Of a stretch of 58,540 bases of DNA, positions 6,752-50,055 are shown piece after piece. The DNA comes from Bacteroidia bacterium. Lineage in GTDB: Bacteria > Bacteroidota > Bacteroidia > Chitinophagales > BACL12. The first letter of the stretch is position 1; each line of letters opens with the position of its first letter. The stretch is taken from the NCBI GenBank assembly GCA_030432405.1, contig JAUIHG010000003.1:1-58540 (forward strand), in the 5' to 3' direction. The notes below the pieces were generated by a model. That model did not search any database. It worked only from the letters and a program-made list of their open reading frames with translations, and had not been told where the DNA came from. Both the position numbers and the translations under genes were made by a program.

Positions 6752-6914
6752 ACGATGGCGGGCAGCCTCGGGGTGACGTGCCGTATCAGCGGCTTACGCC
6801 ATGTTTGTGGGCTAGTTGTGAATAGTGAAGCCCACAACAGGCTGGGCGACAAAGGCTTGTGAAAGTGTCCATTGCGCGACACCGTCTTGGGCCAGTCCTG
6901 CTCGTAAGGGCCCG

Positions 6915-6922
6915 TAGTTTTG
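6915..6922 (+). promoter_or_regulatory. Bacteroidota sigma-A -7 element
   Basis: TAGTTTTG matches TAnnTTTG, upstream of the FKBP ATG at 6940. Confidence 0.5.
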
Positions 6923-6939
6923 CCGCAACCGCCCGATCC

Positions 6940-7452
6940 ATGTTGCCATTGCCCGCCTTCCTGACTGCCAAAGCCCGCACCATCCGCTTCCATGCCGTGC
7001 CCTTGATGTTGACCGGCTTGCTGAGCGCCACGCTGCTGTTGCCCGCCTGCGAAAGCCAACAATCCAGGGAGGACGAAATGATGATCCTCGAGTTCATCGA
7101 TGCCAATGGCCTTTCGGCACAGGCAACGCCGGAAGGCGTCTATTACGCCATCGATGTGGAAGGCAGCGGTGTACGGCCCAGCTTGGCCGGCGCGGTGACG
7201 GTGCATTATGAAGGCAGCCTCCTGGACGGCACCATTTTCGACAGCAGCTACGACCGCGGCGCCCCTTCCACCTTCCCCCTGGCCAATGCCATCGCCGGAT
7301 GGCAGATCGGATTGCCGCAGTTCAGGGAAGGCGGCAGCGGCTGGTTGTTGATCCCCAGCGGGCTCGCCTACGGCGAAAACCCTCCGGCGGGATCGGTCAT
7401 TCCCGAGAATGCGGTGCTGGTCTTCCGCATCGAGTTGCTCGACGTGCTGTAG
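6940..7452 (+). CDS. FKBP-type peptidyl-prolyl isomerase (lipoprotein)
   Basis: VTVHYEGSLLDGTIFDSS, IAGW, LIPSGLAYG, LVFRIELL; lipobox LLPAC; start may be 7006. Confidence 0.92.
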   Translation: MLPLPAFLTAKARTIRFHAVPLMLTGLLSATLLLPACESQQSREDEMMILEFIDANGLSAQATPEGVYYAIDVEGSGVRPSLAGAVTVHYEGSLLDGTIFDSSYDRGAPSTFPLANAIAGWQIGLPQFREGGSGWLLIPSGLAYGENPPAGSVIPENAVLVFRIELLDVL

Positions 7453-7473
7453 CGCGGCTTCGCCGAAGGCGCT

Positions 7474-7899
7474 TCAGACCTTTTGGATGCATTCCGGCAT
7501 GTGCTGGAGGACAATCCTGGCCAGCATTTCTTCGGTGAGGGGCTTGGTGCAAAAGCCCGCCAGTGCCGGATGTTTTGTGCCCCGGTCCCGGTCGTCGGGA
7601 TTGATGCTGGTGGTCAGCATGACCACTTGGGGGCGTTCGTCTTTCCAGGGCAGTGCGTCCCAGGTCTCCAGGAAATCCCATCCGCTCATGCCCGGCATAT
7701 TGATGTCCAGAAAGATGAGATCGGGCAACGGCGCATTGGACTGAAGGCTTTGGCTCAACCAGGTCTGTGCCGCTTCCGCACTGCTGCATTCCTCAATGCG
7801 CCGCACCTTTCCGGAATCCTCCAGTATAATCCGGTGGAAATAGTTGGTCGGCTGGTCGTCATCCACAAGCAGCACAAAATCAACAGAAAAGCGCATCAT
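7474..7899 (-). CDS. Single-domain response regulator (receiver only)
   Basis: LLVDDD, LIFLDINMPGMSG, LTTS, KPL; ATGA overlap with the stop of the upstream kinase. Confidence 0.92.
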   Translation of the reverse strand: MMRFSVDFVLLVDDDQPTNYFHRIILEDSGKVRRIEECSSAEAAQTWLSQSLQSNAPLPDLIFLDINMPGMSGWDFLETWDALPWKDERPQVVMLTTSINPDDRDRGTKHPALAGFCTKPLTEEMLARIVLQHMPECIQKV

Positions 7900-9059
7900 G
7901 CTCTGGTCTTGGGTATGGATATCAAAAATGCAGCACCGGTTCCGTTGCGCGGCTCCACGCAACGTATGTTTCCGTTGTGCAGTTCAACGATCTTTTTGGC
8001 ATGAGCCAGACCGATGCCGATGCCGGGATAGGCTTCACGTCCGTGGAGGCGTTTGAACAGCTGGAAAACCTTCTCCCGGTACTCCGGCGCAATGCCAATC
8101 CCATTGTCTTCAATTCGAATTTCCCATTCTTTTTCGTTTTCCCTGGCCTGAATATGCACCTTGGTCGGCTGGCCATCATGGCCGAATTTCAGGGCATTGG
8201 TCATCAGGTTTTGGAACAAGGTGTATAGCTCCTTGGGGTAACCACTAATGGTCGGCAGGTGGCGGAAGGCCACGGTGGCCTGGTTATCGCGAATGGCCTC
8301 CTGAAGGTCCGCGCAAACGTCTTCCATGATGGCATTCAAATCCACCGATTCCACGTTGCTGTTGCGGCCCAGTCGGGAGTGCATCAACAGGCCGGAAATC
8401 AGTTCGCGCATGCGGCGCGAACTGTCATCCAGGTACTGAAGGGCCATCCGTTCGCGCTCGGGTTGTTCCGGATCAGCACCGCGTTGCAACAAACCGGTGT
8501 AATTGGTGATGGTCCGCAACGGTTCCTGCAGGTCGTGGGAAGCGATGTAGGCAAACTGTTCCAGTTCCCGGTTTTTGTGTTCGAGCTCCCGGGCCCGGGC
8601 TTCCAGGCTGTCCCTGGCCGAACGGAGTTCGCCTTCCAGGCGATCCCTTCTGCGCAACTCCTCGTTGAACTCCGCGGTGGTGCGCAACTGCACCGCTTTG
8701 GGAAAGAAGTGGAACAATCCGAACACGGTCATCCAGGAGACCACAGCGGTTCCAAAAAGCAGCAAGGCGCTCAGTCTGTAGGCCGGATAATAAAAAATGA
8801 TGGCGTCCACGAGGTGTGTGGCGCCACAGAAGAGGATAAAGCCGATAAAGAGCCAGAAAATCCTGGGCATCGGGATGTCGGGCTTGCGGACAACAAAGCG
8901 GAAGAGGAAGACGGGGATGATGAAATACGCCGCCCAGATGGCGATGTCCGAACCGATGTACAACCAGCCGTGAAAACTGCTCCATTCCCCGCAGTTCCAC
9001 CGCGCAGGCCACTCGGAAGGATCAAACAGGTGCCTAAAAAAATGGTATACCTGATCCAT
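7896..9059 (-). CDS. Sensor histidine kinase with an ETR1-like (ethylene receptor) three-helix N-terminal domain
   Basis: SDIAIWAAYFIIP...FILFCGATHL...TAVVS; H-box SHDLQEP; N-box NLMTNALKF; G boxes DNGIGI and GIGIGL. Confidence 0.88.
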   Translation of the reverse strand: MDQVYHFFRHLFDPSEWPARWNCGEWSSFHGWLYIGSDIAIWAAYFIIPVFLFRFVVRKPDIPMPRIFWLFIGFILFCGATHLVDAIIFYYPAYRLSALLLFGTAVVSWMTVFGLFHFFPKAVQLRTTAEFNEELRRRDRLEGELRSARDSLEARARELEHKNRELEQFAYIASHDLQEPLRTITNYTGLLQRGADPEQPERERMALQYLDDSSRRMRELISGLLMHSRLGRNSNVESVDLNAIMEDVCADLQEAIRDNQATVAFRHLPTISGYPKELYTLFQNLMTNALKFGHDGQPTKVHIQARENEKEWEIRIEDNGIGIAPEYREKVFQLFKRLHGREAYPGIGIGLAHAKKIVELHNGNIRCVEPRNGTGAAFLISIPKTRA

Positions 9060-9194
9060 GCGATCAAGTATACCATTAAAAGTTGCCCTCTATGGGCACC
9101 ATATGGGACAATGTTGGAACCGCGACATTCGCTACAGCCCCGGGAGGCTTAGCAGATTATCCCGCGGAATCCGCGCACAACCAGCCGGTTGCCC

Positions 9195-10013
9195 TTAGTT
9201 CTGCTGGTGCACGTGCACGTCCATCTGCGGGAAGGGGATGTTGAGGCCTTCCTTGGCAAAGGCTTCATAGACCTTGTGGTGCATGTCGAAGTAGATGCCC
9301 CAATAGTCGGAGCCTTTGGCCCAGACGCGCACCACGATGTTCACCGAGCTGTCGGCCAGTTCGGACAGCGCAATGAAGGGTTCGGCCGGATCGTTGATGA
9401 TGCGGCTGTCGGCCTTGATGAGGCCCATGAGCACCTCCCGCGCCTTGGTGTAGTCGTCGCCGTAGCCAATGCCAAACGTGAAGTCCACCCGGCGCTTTTC
9501 CTCGCGCGAGAAGTTGACCATCGGTCCCGTGCTCAGGGGGCCGTTGGGGATGATGATGGTCTTGTTGTCCGGTGTCTTGAGGATGGTATTGAAGATCTGG
9601 ATCTCGTTGACCGTTCCCATATAGCCTTGCGCCTCAATGAAGTGGCCCTTCTCAAAAGGCTTGAAGAGCAGCAGCATCACGCCTCCGGCGAAGTTGGACA
9701 GCGAACCGCTCAGCGCCATGCCCACCGCCAGGCCAATGGCACCAATGATGGCTACAAACGAGGTCATGGCCACGCCCAGCATGCTGAGTACGGTGATGAT
9801 CAACAGCACACGCAGCAGGGTGCCGGCCAGCCCGAGCAGGAAGGGCTTCAGGGTCGGGTCGGTTCCCCGGCGGTCCAGCATGGAGCTTAAGCCTCTTTTC
9901 AATCCACGAACGACCATGCCGCCGATAATCCATACCAAAATGGCCCCCAACAATTTGGGGCCGTATTCCAATCCGATCTCCTGCAGTTTAATAATGGCTT
10001 GTTCAGCGTTCAT
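9195..10013 (-). CDS. mscS: Small-conductance mechanosensitive channel
   Basis: GLAVGMALSGSLSNFAGG, KPFEKG, IIPNG, RRVD, IPFPQMDVH. Confidence 0.93.
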   Translation of the reverse strand: MNAEQAIIKLQEIGLEYGPKLLGAILVWIIGGMVVRGLKRGLSSMLDRRGTDPTLKPFLLGLAGTLLRVLLIITVLSMLGVAMTSFVAIIGAIGLAVGMALSGSLSNFAGGVMLLLFKPFEKGHFIEAQGYMGTVNEIQIFNTILKTPDNKTIIIPNGPLSTGPMVNFSREEKRRVDFTFGIGYGDDYTKAREVLMGLIKADSRIINDPAEPFIALSELADSSVNIVVRVWAKGSDYWGIYFDMHHKVYEAFAKEGLNIPFPQMDVHVHQQN

Positions 10014-10106
10014 GGTATCGTTTTTTTACGAATTTGAATGAGCGTTCGGGTGCAAACCTCGGTTATACAGACGGGAATAAGGAGGCTGGTCACCCAAAGG
10101 ATGCCG

Positions 10107-10114
10107 TATTTTTG
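10107..10114 (+). promoter_or_regulatory. Bacteroidota -7 promoter element
   Basis: TATTTTTG upstream of yebC. Confidence 0.5.
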
Positions 10115-10161
10115 GGCCGTTTTCCGCAAAACCCACCCTGAGCACCCACATTCAAACGTAT

Positions 10162-10872
10162 ATGGGAAGAGCATTTGAATACCGCCGCGCCGCCAAGGAA
10201 AAACGCTGGGACAAGATGTCCAAGGTGTTTCCCAAACTGGCCAAGGCCATCACCGTTGCCGCCAAGGAAAGCGGTCCGGACCCAGATGCCAATGCCAAGC
10301 TGCGCCTGGCCATCCAGAAGGCCAAGGCGGAGAACATGCCCAAGGACAACATTGAAAAAGCCATTGCGCGGGCTTCCGGCAAGGATGCCGAAGACATTGT
10401 AGAAATCAACTACGAGGGCAAAGGTCCCCACGGCGTGCTGGTTTTTGTGGAATGCGCCACGGACAACCCCACACGAACGGTGGCCAACGTCAAAAGCTAT
10501 TTCAACAAATCCGGTGGCGGCATGGTCCCCACCGGCAGTCTGGAGTTTTTGTTCGCCCGCAAGGCGGTTTTTGAATTTCAAATGCCCGAGGGGCAGTCCC
10601 GCGATGACGTGGAACTGGGCCTCATCGACGCGGAACTCGAGGAATTGGAAGAAAACGACGGCACCTATTATGCTTATGCGGATTATACCGCCTTCGGCAA
10701 GCTCGGCGAAGCCTTTGAGGCCCTGGGCATTGAGCCCAGTGATGCCAAATTGAAGCGCATCCCCACCTCACCGGTGTCCTTTTCCGATGAGCAACTCGAA
10801 GAAATTGAGAAGATGCTCGACAAAATGGAAGACGACGAGGACGTACAGGCGGTGTACACCAACATCGACTGA
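10162..10872 (+). CDS. yebC: YebC/PmpR family protein
   Basis: [57 protein letters not shown]. Confidence 0.95.
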
Positions 10873-12229: not shown

Positions 12230-13537
12230 CTAATCCTGCGCGGATTGAAAACGCAAGGTTTGACCTTCGCTGCGTGCGGCTTGTTGAACAGCTTCCATTT
12301 CCAGGTACGCTCCGGAACGCCAAATGGACCAACGCTTTCCGGCAAGGTCTGCCGCCAGGGTATAGCCGTTGCCAGGACAGGCCATTTTGGTGCTCATCAT
12401 GGCTTGGTCCACAACAACGCCTCCCGGCGAATGCCGCATCCTCCCGTTGAAGCGGTTGCAGCCGTCGCTGCCAAAGACGGCGACCCGCGTTTCATCAAGC
12501 TGCATGGTGGGCAACCCACGGGGATAATCGGCCGGGTCCAGCACAACACCGTTATGGGCATCCAACATCCAGGTCCCCAACCAGGCCGGATCCATGGGAA
12601 AACGGCCGCAGCCATGGTAAACCACCGAATCCAACCGGCTCCCGGGCACGCCGCGAAGCTCCACGGCATAGGGGTAAGGCGTTCCGGACATGGGATCCGA
12701 ACATGCTTGGGCGGTAAAGCGGATGTGCACGTTTTTGAGCCAATCCAACGATTGGGGCGTTGACGGCTGATCCGGTGCTTCGCCGGTTCCGCCGGCAGTC
12801 ATGGAAAACTCAAGCACCCAACTGCCGTTGGGCCCGGGTTCCAGTGGTCTGGGCGGCCCTTGCGCCTGCAGCCCTTCTGGTGTGCGGAAGGTCCACCCCT
12901 TGGTGGGGTGAAAGTCCAGGGCCCAAAAAGGCTCCTGGCCAAGCGCGTACGCGCGAATGCCCTCCGCCCATTTTTTGCGCGCCAGGTCGGAAGAATGGCT
13001 GTTGTTGTCGATCATGGGTGGAGCCGGTTTGGCCAGCAGGTGGTCCTGTTCCTCCAGGCGGTATGGACGGCCATCGCCATCCGAACGGATGGCAGCCTGG
13101 TGGTCCAGCCAAAGCAGGGCCTGCTCCTGCATGAGGAAGCGGCGCGGTTGGTTTTCCTGGGGATCCAGCAGCAAGGTGTCGCCCCGAAAAGCAAAAAAGC
13201 CTTCACTTTTGTTTTGGATTTGCCGATTGCCCGAGGGCTGCTCTGACCACAAGTAGCGGCCATCTTCGGCGAGCTGCAGTTGGACCTGTAGCCCAACGCC
13301 GTCCTGTGTTCCACCCGCACCCTGCGGCAGCGGACCGGCAAAGCGCCGGGCGGCCTCGGGGATCGGGCCGGATGACGTTGCGAGGGCAGCGCTTGGTCTT
13401 CCCGCTGTGGAGGCCTGCTTTTGCGGGTTTTCGCCGCAGGCGAAAAACAAAACCAAGACCAGGGCAGCAGTCACCTTTGGAACGATGCATCCGTTCTGAC
13501 CGGGCTTGATGGACGTAGGAAAGCAAAAGCCGTTCAT
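12230..13537 (-). CDS. Lipoprotein with NlpE-N-like, COG3650-like and META/HslJ domains
   Basis: Lipobox FFAC; GQEPFW...CSDPMSG..YPY...GCG; GSDGCNRFNG...STKMAC; ATGA overlap with the upstream gene. Confidence 0.75.
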   Translation of the reverse strand: MNGFCFPTSIKPGQNGCIVPKVTAALVLVLFFACGENPQKQASTAGRPSAALATSSGPIPEAARRFAGPLPQGAGGTQDGVGLQVQLQLAEDGRYLWSEQPSGNRQIQNKSEGFFAFRGDTLLLDPQENQPRRFLMQEQALLWLDHQAAIRSDGDGRPYRLEEQDHLLAKPAPPMIDNNSHSSDLARKKWAEGIRAYALGQEPFWALDFHPTKGWTFRTPEGLQAQGPPRPLEPGPNGSWVLEFSMTAGGTGEAPDQPSTPQSLDWLKNVHIRFTAQACSDPMSGTPYPYAVELRGVPGSRLDSVVYHGCGRFPMDPAWLGTWMLDAHNGVVLDPADYPRGLPTMQLDETRVAVFGSDGCNRFNGRMRHSPGGVVVDQAMMSTKMACPGNGYTLAADLAGKRWSIWRSGAYLEMEAVQQAARSEGQTLRFQSAQD

Positions 13538-14343
13538 GGTTTGTACCAGCACTTTTTTCCCTTTTTGAGTTCGATGGCCTCGCTGCGCACCGAAGCCTCC
13601 CGGGGAATGTAGCGCAAGATGCGCCCGTCCAGCATCCAGCGGTCGTCCACCAGGGCTGGAACGTAGAGGTCGGCAAATTCGAGGTGCAGGAACAGGCGCT
13701 TGCCCAGAAAGGCGCCAGCCAGTTCGGGATCATCGAGCACCACGTGAACCGGATCCATGCCCGGCACCACAAAGCGAAGGCTGCGGGTTTGTGCAGGAAT
13801 GTCCAGCGTTCCCCGTCCCCAGCGCAAAGCAGGTCCGGCGTCTGCCTGCACGCGCATGCCGCGCAATAGGGCAGGATCCGAAGCGCTGAGCTGCAAACGG
13901 AGCTTGCCTTCGGCAATTGAATTGGCTTTTGGTTCAGCTTCAGCTGCCGTCCGTGCCGCATCCGGAGCGGCTCCGGAAGACGGCGTTTCCGCGCCTTGCA
14001 CATCGGCCAGGACCCGGAAAAAGGGCCTGCGGTCCGTATTCAACACCAGGGTATCCCCGCGCTTTTGCCAGCCGCCGCTGAAGTCCCGATCGATGGTGCA
14101 ATTGCTGCTGGTCATGCGGAATCGCCCCCCCGCAGCATGCTTCCAGGCACCATCATGCGTCAATTTCAGGCAGATTTTTTCGACGGCATTGCGGGAAGCA
14201 AAACGGGTCTGCGTATCGGACGCTTCCTGCGCCAACAGACCTATGGGCAGCAGCAGCACACCCGCCAGACCAGTGACCCGCACAGTTCCAGCGCGCAGGC
14301 AGTCCATTACGCGCAGTTTCAGCCTACAGAACAGCTCAGCCAT
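13534..14343 (-). CDS. Hypothetical secreted protein
   Basis: Co-oriented ORF in a tight minus-strand run; hydrophobic segment ending LLAQ; start uncertain. Confidence 0.55.
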   Translation of the reverse strand: MAELFCRLKLRVMDCLRAGTVRVTGLAGVLLLPIGLLAQEASDTQTRFASRNAVEKICLKLTHDGAWKHAAGGRFRMTSSNCTIDRDFSGGWQKRGDTLVLNTDRRPFFRVLADVQGAETPSSGAAPDAARTAAEAEPKANSIAEGKLRLQLSASDPALLRGMRVQADAGPALRWGRGTLDIPAQTRSLRFVVPGMDPVHVVLDDPELAGAFLGKRLFLHLEFADLYVPALVDDRWMLDGRILRYIPREASVRSEAIELKKGKKCWYKP

Positions 14344-16875: not shown

Positions 16876-17889
16876 TCAGGATCGGGATGAAGGACCGCCT
16901 TCGGCGAACAGCTCGTGCAGGGATTCGTCGATTTTCTCCCCTCCTTTGATACCAAAGTCCAATGTGCGGATGGGGAACGGAATCGTTATACCGTTTTCCT
17001 GGAAGCTGCGGTGGATGGCCACAACCGCTTCGTGTCGGGCTTGCAGGTAGTCGGAAGGCTCAAGACAGTCGTGCCCGAGCCAAAAGCGCACGGTAAAATC
17101 AACGCTGCTCGAGCCAAAGCCCTCATAAAAGACGGTGACTTCCCGTTCGTTGTTGCAAGCGGCCGACTTGACGATGGCCTGTTTGGCAATCTCTGCCGCG
17201 CGGGCCAGATCGTCGCCGTAGGATACGCCGCAACTGATGTCCACACGGCGTTCGCCGGTCACGGTATAATTGGTCAATGGATTTTCCACCACCATGCGGT
17301 TGGGAATAACCACCAGTTGGCCCTGAAAGGTTTTTACATGCAGCGTGCGCAACGTGATCTTCTGGATAATGCCGGTGATGCCGTTGGTCTCAATCATATC
17401 CCCGATGTTGTAGGGATTGCGCAGCGACATCAGGACACCGGCCAACAGGTTGGCCATGGAGTCCTGGAAAGCAAGACCAATGACCAGGCCGGCAATCCCT
17501 GCTCCGGCCAACATGGAACTGAGCGCCTTGTTGAGGTCCATGATGCCGAGCGCAAGAATCAGACCCAGAATGACCAGTATCACAGAACCGATATTGGCCA
17601 TCAGTTTGTTGACGGCTTGGTTGCTGCTGAAACGGCCACTCAGGCGCTCAATGCTGCGGTTGAGAAAACGGGAGGCAAAAACGGCCAGCATCAAGACGAC
17701 CAGAGCCAGCAGGGCATTGGGCAACATGTTGATGGCGGCGTCAAGCCATCCATCCAACTTGTCCCACATGCCCTGCCAGGCGTCCTGGACGTTGCCCACT
17801 TGCTCTGGGCCAGCTGCTGCAGCTCCATGGCCAGCAGTTACGGCACTATCGGCCGGGTTCAATAGGGGGTTTTGCATCGGAGGCACCAT
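16876..17889 (-). CDS. MscS family mechanosensitive channel (second paralogue)
   Basis: GAGIAGLVIGLAFQD, PYNIGD, VIPN, GVSYGDDL, IPFPIRTLD. Confidence 0.9.
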   Translation of the reverse strand: MVPPMQNPLLNPADSAVTAGHGAAAAGPEQVGNVQDAWQGMWDKLDGWLDAAINMLPNALLALVVLMLAVFASRFLNRSIERLSGRFSSNQAVNKLMANIGSVILVILGLILALGIMDLNKALSSMLAGAGIAGLVIGLAFQDSMANLLAGVLMSLRNPYNIGDMIETNGITGIIQKITLRTLHVKTFQGQLVVIPNRMVVENPLTNYTVTGERRVDISCGVSYGDDLARAAEIAKQAIVKSAACNNEREVTVFYEGFGSSSVDFTVRFWLGHDCLEPSDYLQARHEAVVAIHRSFQENGITIPFPIRTLDFGIKGGEKIDESLHELFAEGGPSSRS

Positions 17890-48181: not shown

Positions 48182-49879
48182 CTATTGAATGATCACCTTT
48201 CGCGTATAGGCTTGGTTGCCTTGCTCAATGACCAGGTAATACACGCCTTTCGGCTCACCCAGGGCATCCACCTTGAGCGTATTGGTTCCTGCCTGGGCGG
48301 TGAAATCCGAATCAAAAACCTGGCGTCCTGCCCCGTCAAAGAGGCGCACCATGACCGGTCCATCTTCGTTCAGGTCAAACGACAAATCAAATTGACCGTT
48401 GTTCGGATTGGGCTGGAACCGGACCATATCCAATTCCAGGTCCGTGCCCTCGGCCAGCGGCGGATTGGCATTGGCACGCAATTGGTCCATGTCCGATGCG
48501 CTGGGCACATCCATGGTGATGAAAACGGCCACGCGGCGCACCACCCGTGTATTGTTGTTGTCCAGGTCCTCCCCGCCAAACAGGATTTCCATGTCCTCCA
48601 TCTCCCGGAGGCGCTGGAGGTCCTGCAGCAGGTCTTCGGATAGGTGTTCGCCTTCCAGGATCACTTCTTCTTCGATCATCTGCTCCATGTCCCGCAGCGC
48701 GTTCTGCAAACCCTCGTTGAAGCGCAACCGCTCTGCCCCGTGATGCTTGGCCTGCATGGTGCCTGTAGCCACGCCCCGCTCGCCTTCTCGCAGGTAGTCC
48801 ACGCTCAGCGGACTGCCGACCTGCAGGGTACCGATGGCTTCCTTGAGCGCGGACGTACTGCCGGTGGGGATGCCGTTGATGGCCGTGACCACATCGCCTT
48901 CCATCAGACCCAGGGCTTCGGCGGTGGTACCGGACACCGTGCCGCTGATGCGTACACCCCGGTCGGTTTCCTCATCGAGGTAGACCCCCAGAAACGGCTT
49001 GTTCACGCCGGCTATGGACGCCTGTTTGTCCAGGAACATCTCCATGTCCTGAAGGTCCACGTCTCCGTCCCATTCAAACTCGAAGCGGCCATCGTCGCCG
49101 ATCCAGTGCAGTTCCTGCTTCTCCATGGGTTCGCCCAGCGTAGCGGGGACATCCATGGTACGGCCGTCACGGCGCACCTGCAGGGTCACCTCGTCGCCGG
49201 GCGCATAGCCGGCGAGCGCTTCCCGGATGCCGTACGCACCATCAAAGGCGTTGCCGTCCATGCCGAGAATGACATCGTCTTCCTGCAGACCGGCCGCTGC
49301 AGCACCCGTTTCCGGAATCACGCCCGTCACGCGGGCAGCATGGCCCTCGACCAGCTCCTCAACATCAAAATAGACGCCCAAAAAGGCCCGCGGAGCACTG
49401 TCTTCCAGCTCGCTGCGGTAGACCCGCACGCGTTGCTGCAGCTCCTGTAGGTCTTCAAACAGGCCGCTGAGGTCCGGGACCAATTCGTTGAGTTCCAGGC
49501 GGAAGCTTTCTCCATCGCCGCGCTGCGTGCGGTTGATGATGATCTCCACGTCTTCGCCTTCGGACATGCCGTCCAGGTCCAAATCGGCGTCAATGTCCAT
49601 TTCACGGAGGCGCTTGAGCAGGGCTTCAAGGCCATCGCCGTCCAGGTCTTCGGCGCTCCATTGGATGACCGTGTCGATGCGGAGTTCCTCGCCGCCTTCC
49701 TCGACGTTGATCTGCAATTGGATGCTGCCTTGCGCCTGCAGGGCGCCTCCGGCGATCGCCGACCCGAAAAGCAGCGCGGTCAGCAGCAGGCCCAGGCCCT
49801 TCCAGGGGGCGCTCAAGGCGGCTTGCGGAGCGGCCGGGACAGCGCCGGCGGCCTTCCGTTGGTGAATCAAAGAGTTCAT
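48182..49879 (-). CDS. Two-PDZ-domain protein with a T9SS C-terminal domain
   Basis: Two FLGV...AxxxGLxExDV PDZ units; FQPNPNNGQF...KGVYYLVIEQ...KVIIQ CTD; signal peptide. Confidence 0.82.
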   Translation of the reverse strand: MNSLIHQRKAAGAVPAAPQAALSAPWKGLGLLLTALLFGSAIAGGALQAQGSIQLQINVEEGGEELRIDTVIQWSAEDLDGDGLEALLKRLREMDIDADLDLDGMSEGEDVEIIINRTQRGDGESFRLELNELVPDLSGLFEDLQELQQRVRVYRSELEDSAPRAFLGVYFDVEELVEGHAARVTGVIPETGAAAAGLQEDDVILGMDGNAFDGAYGIREALAGYAPGDEVTLQVRRDGRTMDVPATLGEPMEKQELHWIGDDGRFEFEWDGDVDLQDMEMFLDKQASIAGVNKPFLGVYLDEETDRGVRISGTVSGTTAEALGLMEGDVVTAINGIPTGSTSALKEAIGTLQVGSPLSVDYLREGERGVATGTMQAKHHGAERLRFNEGLQNALRDMEQMIEEEVILEGEHLSEDLLQDLQRLREMEDMEILFGGEDLDNNNTRVVRRVAVFITMDVPSASDMDQLRANANPPLAEGTDLELDMVRFQPNPNNGQFDLSFDLNEDGPVMVRLFDGAGRQVFDSDFTAQAGTNTLKVDALGEPKGVYYLVIEQGNQAYTRKVIIQ

Positions 49880-50055
49880 GGTGAATGCGGTTGCGCGCAG
49901 TATGGCGCGGATAAAACGATGCGTACCACCAAATGTACGGGGCCACCCCAGCCGCCTATGCAAACAGCGCGTTAAAGCATGAAGGGGCTGCGTTAAAAGA
50001 TGTTAAGGGCTTGATCAACAAGCCCTAAGCACCATCAAAATGCCCTTCCGAAGCG

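Follow-up and report, generated by a model that had tools for sequence, protein, structure and literature searches.

An ETR1_N-type sensor kinase with leucine at the Lys91 position and an overlapping receiver gene in a Bacteroidota genome

The literature on bacterial ethylene receptors deals with cyanobacteria and proteobacteria, to which the available part of PMC11819568 adds 'other bacterial phyla'; by the same text, such receptors have been proven in only one cyanobacterium and one proteobacterium. The latter contributes AzoEtr1 of Azospirillum brasilense, which combines an ETR1_N sensor domain with HisKA and HATPase domains and has a response-regulator gene directly downstream. Saturable binding of 14C-ethylene has been measured for its residues 1-130, in which the seven residues that ETR1 requires are conserved (PMC11819568, available text). 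Here, we describe a sensor histidine kinase gene and the receiver gene overlapping its end, both on the minus strand of a 58,540-nt stretch of DNA from Bacteroidia bacterium (contig JAUIHG010000003.1, positions 1 to 58,540; hereafter the window, to which all coordinates refer). By its sequence, the kinase is a new member of the ETR1_N ethylene-binding family, with every expected sequence feature save a basic residue in helix 3. We judge the chances about even that the two genes form a two-component system whose sensor depends on Cu and responds to ethylene or a small ligand like it, the binding being weakened or faster.

The Arabidopsis receptors ETR1 and ERS1 share with this kinase the Pfam sensor family, the Asp/Cys/Thr/His arrangement, the spacing of the seven residues and a kinase-type output. 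Unlike it, the plant receptors carry a GAF domain after the membrane domain, keep Lys91 and, in the case of ETR1, have a fused receiver (PMC10266040, as far as its available text describes them). In the window, by comparison, the kinase has no GAF domain, its receiver is a separate gene, and leucine stands in place of the lysine; lacking a GAF domain, it does not count as a plant-type receptor. Between helices 2 and 3, its loop is presumably three residues shorter than that of ETR1. SynEtr1 (Slr1212) of Synechocystis is a larger multi-sensor protein.

The sensor domain and its predicted copper site

In a Pfam search, residues 30-125 of the kinase matched ETR1_N (PF25487, 'Ethylene receptor 1-like, N-terminal domain') over its full length, from position 2 to position 97 of a 97-position profile, and above the curated cut-off (104.8 bits vs 27; E = 2.9e-30). 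Across the 3.98-Mb assembly (420 contigs, 83% complete), an independent six-frame scan placed the domain at 8685-8972 (-) with 108.4 bits and found no second copy. A sequence-only reading of the window had proposed an ETR1-type domain on the strength of residues 37-83; the letters it quoted agree exactly with the translation, and the family it named is the one returned by Pfam. Judged from sequence comparison, the combination of this match with the residue agreement given below is far beyond chance. The Pfam search found neither GAF nor PAS in the kinase at E <= 0.01 and no sensory domain in the linker at residues 126-165, which bears out the minimal architecture proposed earlier, a binding domain joined straight to HisKA and HATPase without GAF. 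An NCBIfam search of the kinase gave kinase-core matches only, all below threshold, and a phmmer search of residues 1-135 against the PDB gave chance matches only (best E = 0.12).

The residues D38, Y45, I48, P49, I75, C78 and H82 are read directly in the translation, with TAVVS at residues 104-108. We take Tyr32, Ile35, Pro36 and Ile62 to be ethylene-binding residues of ETR1. A tblastn search of residues 1-135 against plasmid records matched 19 records, 7 of them from Azospirillum, and the open reading frame (ORF) at L005:2977-4554, on plasmid p1 of A. brasilense Sp7, could be identified as AzoEtr1, since the published cloning primer encodes the same eight residues with which it begins. When the kinase was aligned with AzoEtr1 by MAFFT, no gap appeared from helix 1 through helix 3, the seven residues coincided, and identity over residues 30-125 was 38%. 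AzoEtr1 itself matches the ETR1_N profile over residues 27-122 with 132 bits, and since it places 96 residues over positions 2-97, exactly as the kinase does, both proteins are in the same register. Counted from the aspartate, the spacings (Y +7, I +10, P +11, I +37, C +40, H +44) are equal in the kinase, in AzoEtr1 and in the published ETR1 numbering. The conservation of all seven residues asserted by the sequence-only reading therefore holds; its constant offset of +13 to ETR1 agrees with these spacings, a check made indirectly, by way of AzoEtr1.

Cys78 and His82 stand one helical turn apart and align with the Cys and His of AzoEtr1, and the other five residues (D38, Y45, I48, P49, I75) are identical to those of AzoEtr1. 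A HMMER search with residues 1-135 returned 6191 cluster representatives (50% identity) at E <= 1e-3, 2634 at <= 1e-10 and 557 at <= 1e-30; among the best 150, which are all close relatives and range from 148 to 1444 amino acids, the Cys and the His are present in all 150, the Tyr in 149, the first Ile in 146, the Pro in 149 and the second Ile in 149.

An AlphaFold2 model built from 16 homologues predicts helices at residues 29-58, 65-88 and 94-124, and three hydropathy peaks, centred near 42-49, 71-81 and 105-110, likewise give three transmembrane helices. Both Cys78 and His82 lie inside helix 65-88, so the placement in the second membrane helix that had been named beforehand as decisive is upheld. 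Beyond the membrane, the model continues as one unbroken helix at residues 128-194, reaching from the membrane to the phospho-acceptor His175.

The N-terminus of the kinase agrees with the clade consensus in an alignment of same-architecture kinases, and the cap at residues 1-29, for which the model predicts a short helix at residues 2-12, contains W17, P18, R20, W21, C23, G24, W26 and F29, invariant in 16 of 16 such kinases. Of the 150 representatives, 148 have Cys23 and 136 have His30. AzoEtr1 has the usual bacterial N-terminal motif, whereas this kinase has a clade-specific variant; the clade-specific cap stands where AzoEtr1 and cyanobacterial and some Bacteroidota copies have another motif, and the cysteine is common to both versions. 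AzoEtr1 differs further in its proteobacterial host, in its proven ethylene binding, in its length (525 amino acids, with a PAS domain between sensor and kinase that is absent here) and in the lysine discussed below.

Leucine at the position of ETR1 Lys91

The helix-3 lysine of AzoEtr1 aligns with Leu101 of the kinase, in agreement with the sequence-only reading, which had suspected leucine at the equivalent of ETR1 K91; helix 3 has no basic residue at this site, which is Lys or Arg in 127 of the 150 representatives. The earlier reading was right about the leucine and understated its weight by listing it as a mere caveat, given that ETR1 variants at this position can fall to about 1-6% of normal binding: in ETR1, ethylene binding relative to wild type is 63% for K91R, about 6% for K91M and about 1% for K91A, each with normal copper binding (PMC10266040, available text). 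The roles of ETR1 Asp25 are given in PMC10266040 and PMC11971883; it bonds to both His69 and Lys91 (PMC10266040, in the part at hand), and the Asp25Asn variant has an affinity about 100-fold lower (PMC11971883). Since the non-polar Lys91 mutants of ETR1 keep only about 1-6% of binding, high-affinity ethylene sensing cannot be assumed here. What would be expected from the change of Lys91 to Leu is intact copper binding, ligand binding much weaker or faster-releasing than in ETR1, and altered coupling to the kinase.

Leu101 is genuine and no assembly error, because it is shared by a second strain, by P0001 and by P0002. The second strain, represented by contigs of two runs from another study (depths 73 and 53), shows 39 differences over 1801 bases with codon 101 unchanged; P0001, assembled from other contigs, differs from the kinase at four amino acids (99% identity), and P0002 has 59% identity.

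We counted the residues at the Lys91 site in three samples, none of them unbiased. The 146 proteins of the word-based searches, which are near relatives, have Arg in 134, Lys in 3, Leu in 8 and Gln in 1, the 27 domains of the genome surveys have Lys in 20, Arg in 5 and Leu in 2, and the 150 best representatives at 50% identity have Arg in 74, Lys in 53, Leu in 20, Phe in 2 and Tyr in 1. In the last sample the Lys91 and Asp25 sites vary together. All 17 representatives with Asn or Ser at the Asp site fall among the 23 non-basic ones, each with Leu in place of the Lys; the 127 basic representatives carry Asp or Glu at the Asp site without exception (Fisher p = 9e-18 over the 150 representatives, relatedness not corrected for). 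Coevolution of Asp25 and Lys91 has already been published (PMC10266040, available text), and these counts agree with it. The near-identical pair P0121 (Arg) and P0122 (Leu) differs at the Lys91 site, from which it follows that changes there recur. No compensating basic residue specific to the Leu variants was found in the alignment as judged by eye.

Selection on the gene could be judged against the second strain and against more distant relatives. In comparison with a 97.8%-identical strain, the kinase has 30 synonymous and 4 non-synonymous changes, a ratio of non-synonymous to synonymous rates (dN/dS) of 0.036, and its first 135 residues have 11 and 3, respectively (dN/dS = 0.068); the kinase gene is under strong purifying selection. 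Against relatives, the binding domain is the best-conserved part of the protein (with P0002, 73% vs 41% for the catalytic domain). The low dN/dS and the conservation of the binding domain argue that the sensor is maintained by selection despite the absent basic residue.

A separate observation concerns genome G122, which has two ETR1_N genes in tandem (L010:1414-2091 and L010:2209-3288). The first encodes only 225 amino acids, comprising the sensor and a partial HisKA, and the second has Phe for the copper-ligand His and therefore probably cannot bind copper.

Table 1. Features of the kinase and receiver locus by position in the window.
Feature	Positions	Strand	Basis or remarks
Sensor histidine kinase gene	7896..9059	-	ORF translation, 387 amino acids + stop
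N-terminal cap, residues 1-29, upstream of the Pfam domain	8973..9059	-	Clade-specific conserved motif including Cys23
ETR1_N ethylene-binding-type domain, residues 30-125, three membrane helices	8685..8972	-	Pfam, model, hydropathy
Asp38 codon, ETR1 Asp25 position, helix 1	8946..8948	-	Translation, alignment
Cys78 to His82 codons (C-G-A-T-H), helix 2, predicted Cu(I) ligands equivalent to ETR1 Cys65/His69	8814..8828	-	
Leu101 codon CTT, helix 3, position of ETR1 Lys91 and AzoEtr1 Lys	8757..8759	-	Alignment, codon reading
Helical linker (signalling helix), residues 126-165, helix 3 to kinase	8565..8684	-	Model
HisKA dimerisation/phospho-acceptor domain, residues 166-231, His175	8367..8564	-	Pfam
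HATPase_c catalytic domain, residues 275-385	7905..8237	-	Pfam; N box 284, G1 318, G2 346
Single-domain response regulator, 141 amino acids	7474..7899	-	Response_reg its sole Pfam family
Strong RNA hairpin, 15-16 bp stem, kinase start codon in loop, then U run	9041..9077	-	Terminator-like site

Antisense ORFs at 8259-9152, 7483-8004 and 7409-7744 (+) were considered as genes; none has a Pfam match, and we treat them as high-GC (guanine-plus-cytosine) shadows.

Proposed signalling and its alternatives

The kinase ends in GCA TGA and the receiver starts with ATG ATG CGC, giving a 4-base ATGA overlap, so the translationally coupled single-domain receiver described earlier stands. The motifs of a classical HisKA pair are intact on both sides: the kinase has His175, invariant among the aligned same-architecture kinases, with the N, G1 and G2 boxes, and the receiver has its acidic pocket, with Asp13-15, Asp65, Thr96/97 and Lys119 all present. 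Against the second strain, the receiver has 3 synonymous and no non-synonymous changes. The solved chains closest to the kinase core are 8f71 and then the bacteriophytochrome kinases 8sgk and 8avv (E about 1e-29), and those closest to the receiver are 3ilh, 6xvu and 4xlt, followed by the phytochrome-associated regulators 8avv and 1k66. The transmitter thus resembles phytochrome-type kinase/regulator pairs, such as Cph1 or bacteriophytochromes with Rcp-type regulators, and database entries label homologues 'sensor kinase Cph1'; unlike those systems, the kinase lacks the PAS-GAF-PHY photosensory module and has the membrane ETR1_N domain as its input.

A receiver-like ORF lies directly downstream on the same strand in 8 of 23 sensor-kinase loci with at least 300 bases downstream, this one included, and 5 of the 8 receivers were confirmed by Pfam; the pairing is therefore frequent and not universal. 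The 4-base overlap and the recurrence of the pairing at 7 of the 22 other loci are what suggest phosphotransfer from the kinase to the receiver.

For copper loading, the ligand, the sign of regulation and the output, we infer the following scheme. Within the membrane, Cu(I) would be held by Cys78 and His82 of helix 2, with Asp38 of helix 1 setting their orientation. Binding to Cu(I) of a small ligand with a double bond, most likely ethylene, would shift helix 3 and, because helix 3 runs as one long helix into the kinase, would alter autophosphorylation at His175, in one direction or the other. Phosphate would pass from His175 to Asp65 of the co-translated, stand-alone receiver, which, having no DNA-binding or enzymatic domain, would have to act through the binding of another protein. 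The interpretation of the locus as a Cu-dependent two-component sensor of ethylene or another small gas, put forward in the sequence-only reading, is partly supported by these data.

Several points weigh against it. The proven bacterial ethylene receptors, one from a cyanobacterium and one from a proteobacterium, include no Bacteroidota member, and among the papers listed in our searches there was no link between ethylene receptors and Bacteroidota beyond one passing mention, though published surveys or a supplement may list them. By analogy with ETR1, Leu101 would remove the Asp-Lys bridge on which ETR1 relies to bind tightly and to pass the signal on to helix 3, and by the ETR1 data alone the kinase would be a poor ethylene receptor. 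Its own combination, Asp with a non-basic residue, occurs in only 6 of the 150 representatives. The AlphaFold2 model is only moderately confident (mean predicted local distance difference test score 69.3). In the sole same-genus genome that carries the pair, it lies in a different neighbourhood, and the neighbours in the window (MscS, FKBP, YebC, thioredoxin) offer no functional clue and suggest no regulon.

The leucine may have a meaning of its own. We tentatively suggest that Leu101 could be the mark of ETR1-type sensors that have given up the Asp-Lys bridge and are maintained in nature as a class of their own, its members being either of low affinity and fast release or retuned to another copper-binding gas. 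The 23 non-basic sequences among the 150 nearest clusters, 17 of them with Asp changed to Asn or Ser, would make up this class, and its low-affinity members would follow fluctuating ethylene in water or aggregates.

It is also conceivable, although unlikely in our estimate, that the domain reports copper itself, its output following Cu(I) loading of Cys78/His82 and sensing membrane copper supply or redox. Copper binding by ETR1 is independent of Lys91 (PMC10266040, available text), so the leucine, which puts the ethylene function in question, should leave the copper site unharmed, and the Cys and His are universal among the 150 representatives whereas the Asp and Lys sites vary. However, the ethylene residues not known as copper ligands are equally conserved (146 to 149 of 150 for the Tyr, the Pro and the two Ile), no copper efflux or chaperone gene was found in the window, and all characterised family members sense ethylene, according to the available text of PMC11819568.

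We similarly doubt that the Cu(I) site senses a different ligand (another alkene, carbon monoxide, nitric oxide or an isocyanide), with the loss of the basic residue retuning selectivity. Cu(I) binds alkenes, carbon monoxide, nitric oxide and isocyanides, and both the number of non-basic sites that also have Asn or Ser for Asp and the difference between P0121 and P0122 would suit such a reading, the former suggesting a maintained alternative state; yet physiological use of another ligand is not known from any family member, and the remaining pocket is unchanged. Finally, it is very improbable that the sensor no longer gates the kinase, leaving a constitutive or otherwise-regulated membrane-anchored enzyme whose N-terminal domain provides only anchoring and dimerisation, a view that would fit the poor hold of ETR1 K91M on both its on and off states (PMC10266040, in the part available) and the lack of a conserved genomic context for the kinase/receiver system, but not the purifying selection on the binding domain, its standing as the most conserved part of the protein, or the retention of all seven pocket residues, needless for a mere anchor.

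Distribution, neighbourhood and significance

The Cu-dependent sensing of ethylene or a similar ligand proposed here would concern a widespread type of gene. Genes of this kind are common and already catalogued, and they will not surprise a specialist: the rarity implied earlier does not survive a curated Pfam family, the 6191 clusters above, and ETR1_N above cut-off in 20 of 400 other Bacteroidota genomes sampled evenly. With the window's own genome counted, 12 of 180 genera have the domain, and 13 of the 20 positive genomes belong to one family. The best 120 full-protein matches all combine PF25487, HisKA and HATPase, in about 375-392 amino acids or, with a PAS domain inserted, about 505-520; named sources include Niastella vici, N. 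yeongjuensis, N. caeni, Pseudobacter, Paraflavitalea, Aridibaculum, Fibrella, Fibrivirga and metagenome-assembled genomes (MAGs) of Chitinophagaceae. Longer relatives from the word-based search (26, all bacterial) add PAS, and 16 of the 26 also have GAF. A scan for related loci was swamped by the generic kinase motif, and the sensor was covered in only five of its 79 loci (L032, L033, L034, L106 and L062). Full-length relatives at 37-41% identity are those of L034, L032, L033 and L106; L034 is from an Acidobacteria MAG, which indicates that the short architecture is not confined to one phylum, and Bacteroidota MAGs, including Segetibacter and Cytophagaceae, also appear.

The host itself was placed in Bacteroidota by the sequence-only reading, correctly so by two markers in the window: a Por_Secre_tail domain in 48182-49963 (40.4 bits, cut-off 27), and MnmG, whose best named matches (68-76% identity) are Bacteroidetes/Flavobacteriales MAGs, Haliscomenobacter, Flavilitoribacter and Lewinellaceae. 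At close range the spread of the domain is patchy: it is present in one of the 4 other genomes of the genus and in one of 16 from the order, and in none of 20 other genomes of the family does it score above the ETR1_N cut-off (one weak match). The same-genus copy (genome G003, L003/L111) is 46% identical in the kinase and 37% in the receiver, and its locus has 38% GC, vs 45% in its surrounding 18 kb and 59% in this window. For 15 other genes of the window, no homologue lies in the 9 kb flanking that copy on either side, and this unrelated neighbourhood, together with the GC content, hints at a separate acquisition. The best same-genus match of the MscS neighbour is only 48% identical, so the 'genus' is deep.

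Upstream of the kinase on the same strand lies an MscS-type channel gene (9195-10013, -), and downstream, convergent with the receiver, an FKBP isomerase gene (6859-7452). Farther out are genes for a Laminin_G protein with a type IX secretion system tail, YebC, thioredoxin, an outer-membrane barrel, a META/NlpE-domain protein, an AraC regulator, a second MscS and a Dps-like ferritin. The protein with NlpE N-terminal and META domains (12230-13552, -) is 3 kb from the kinase, a nearness that is probably coincidence; NlpE is linked to copper and surface sensing in E. coli. The second MscS gene lies at 16876-17889 (-), so that two fall within 9 kb, the first of them directly upstream of the kinase. 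Plant ethylene receptors have been reported to be calcium-permeable in the available part of a 2025 preprint (10.1101/2025.10.20.683334).

The region 9025-9100 (-) folds with -35.2 kcal/mol (z = -7.0; none of 200 shuffles as stable). The hairpin in it (Table 1) is probably the terminator of the MscS gene overlapping the kinase start, and it could hide the kinase start codon. As a conserved regulator it was rejected, no comparable hairpin being present at the kinase start of 6 relatives. A scan of 7300-10200 for sigma-70-type promoters gave no sites with a consensus that is uninformative for Bacteroidota. The stretch 7400-9200 is found in sequencing runs of three studies, labelled 'biofloc metagenome' or 'metagenome', one of which may be the source of the window; no RNA run was among those listed. 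The biofloc runs are only a hint of the habitat, and the sole one bearing on the algal or plant partners that the sequence-only reading raised as a possible target of sensing.

The interest of the locus is moderate and lies in a phylum that has no proven receptor and in a natural variant at the Lys91 site. That variant bears directly on the published model of an Asp25-Lys91 bridge, and if the bridge-less class is real, it would provide a naturally occurring test of the structural model by which ethylene perception is currently explained. The short fusion of sensor and kinase would also lend itself to straightforward biochemistry. Members of the Bacteroidota rank among the main colonisers of plant roots, algae and aquatic aggregates, and the domain is present in about 1 in 20 of the sampled species; should it work as a receptor in this phylum, ethylene would reach further as a signal between kingdoms.

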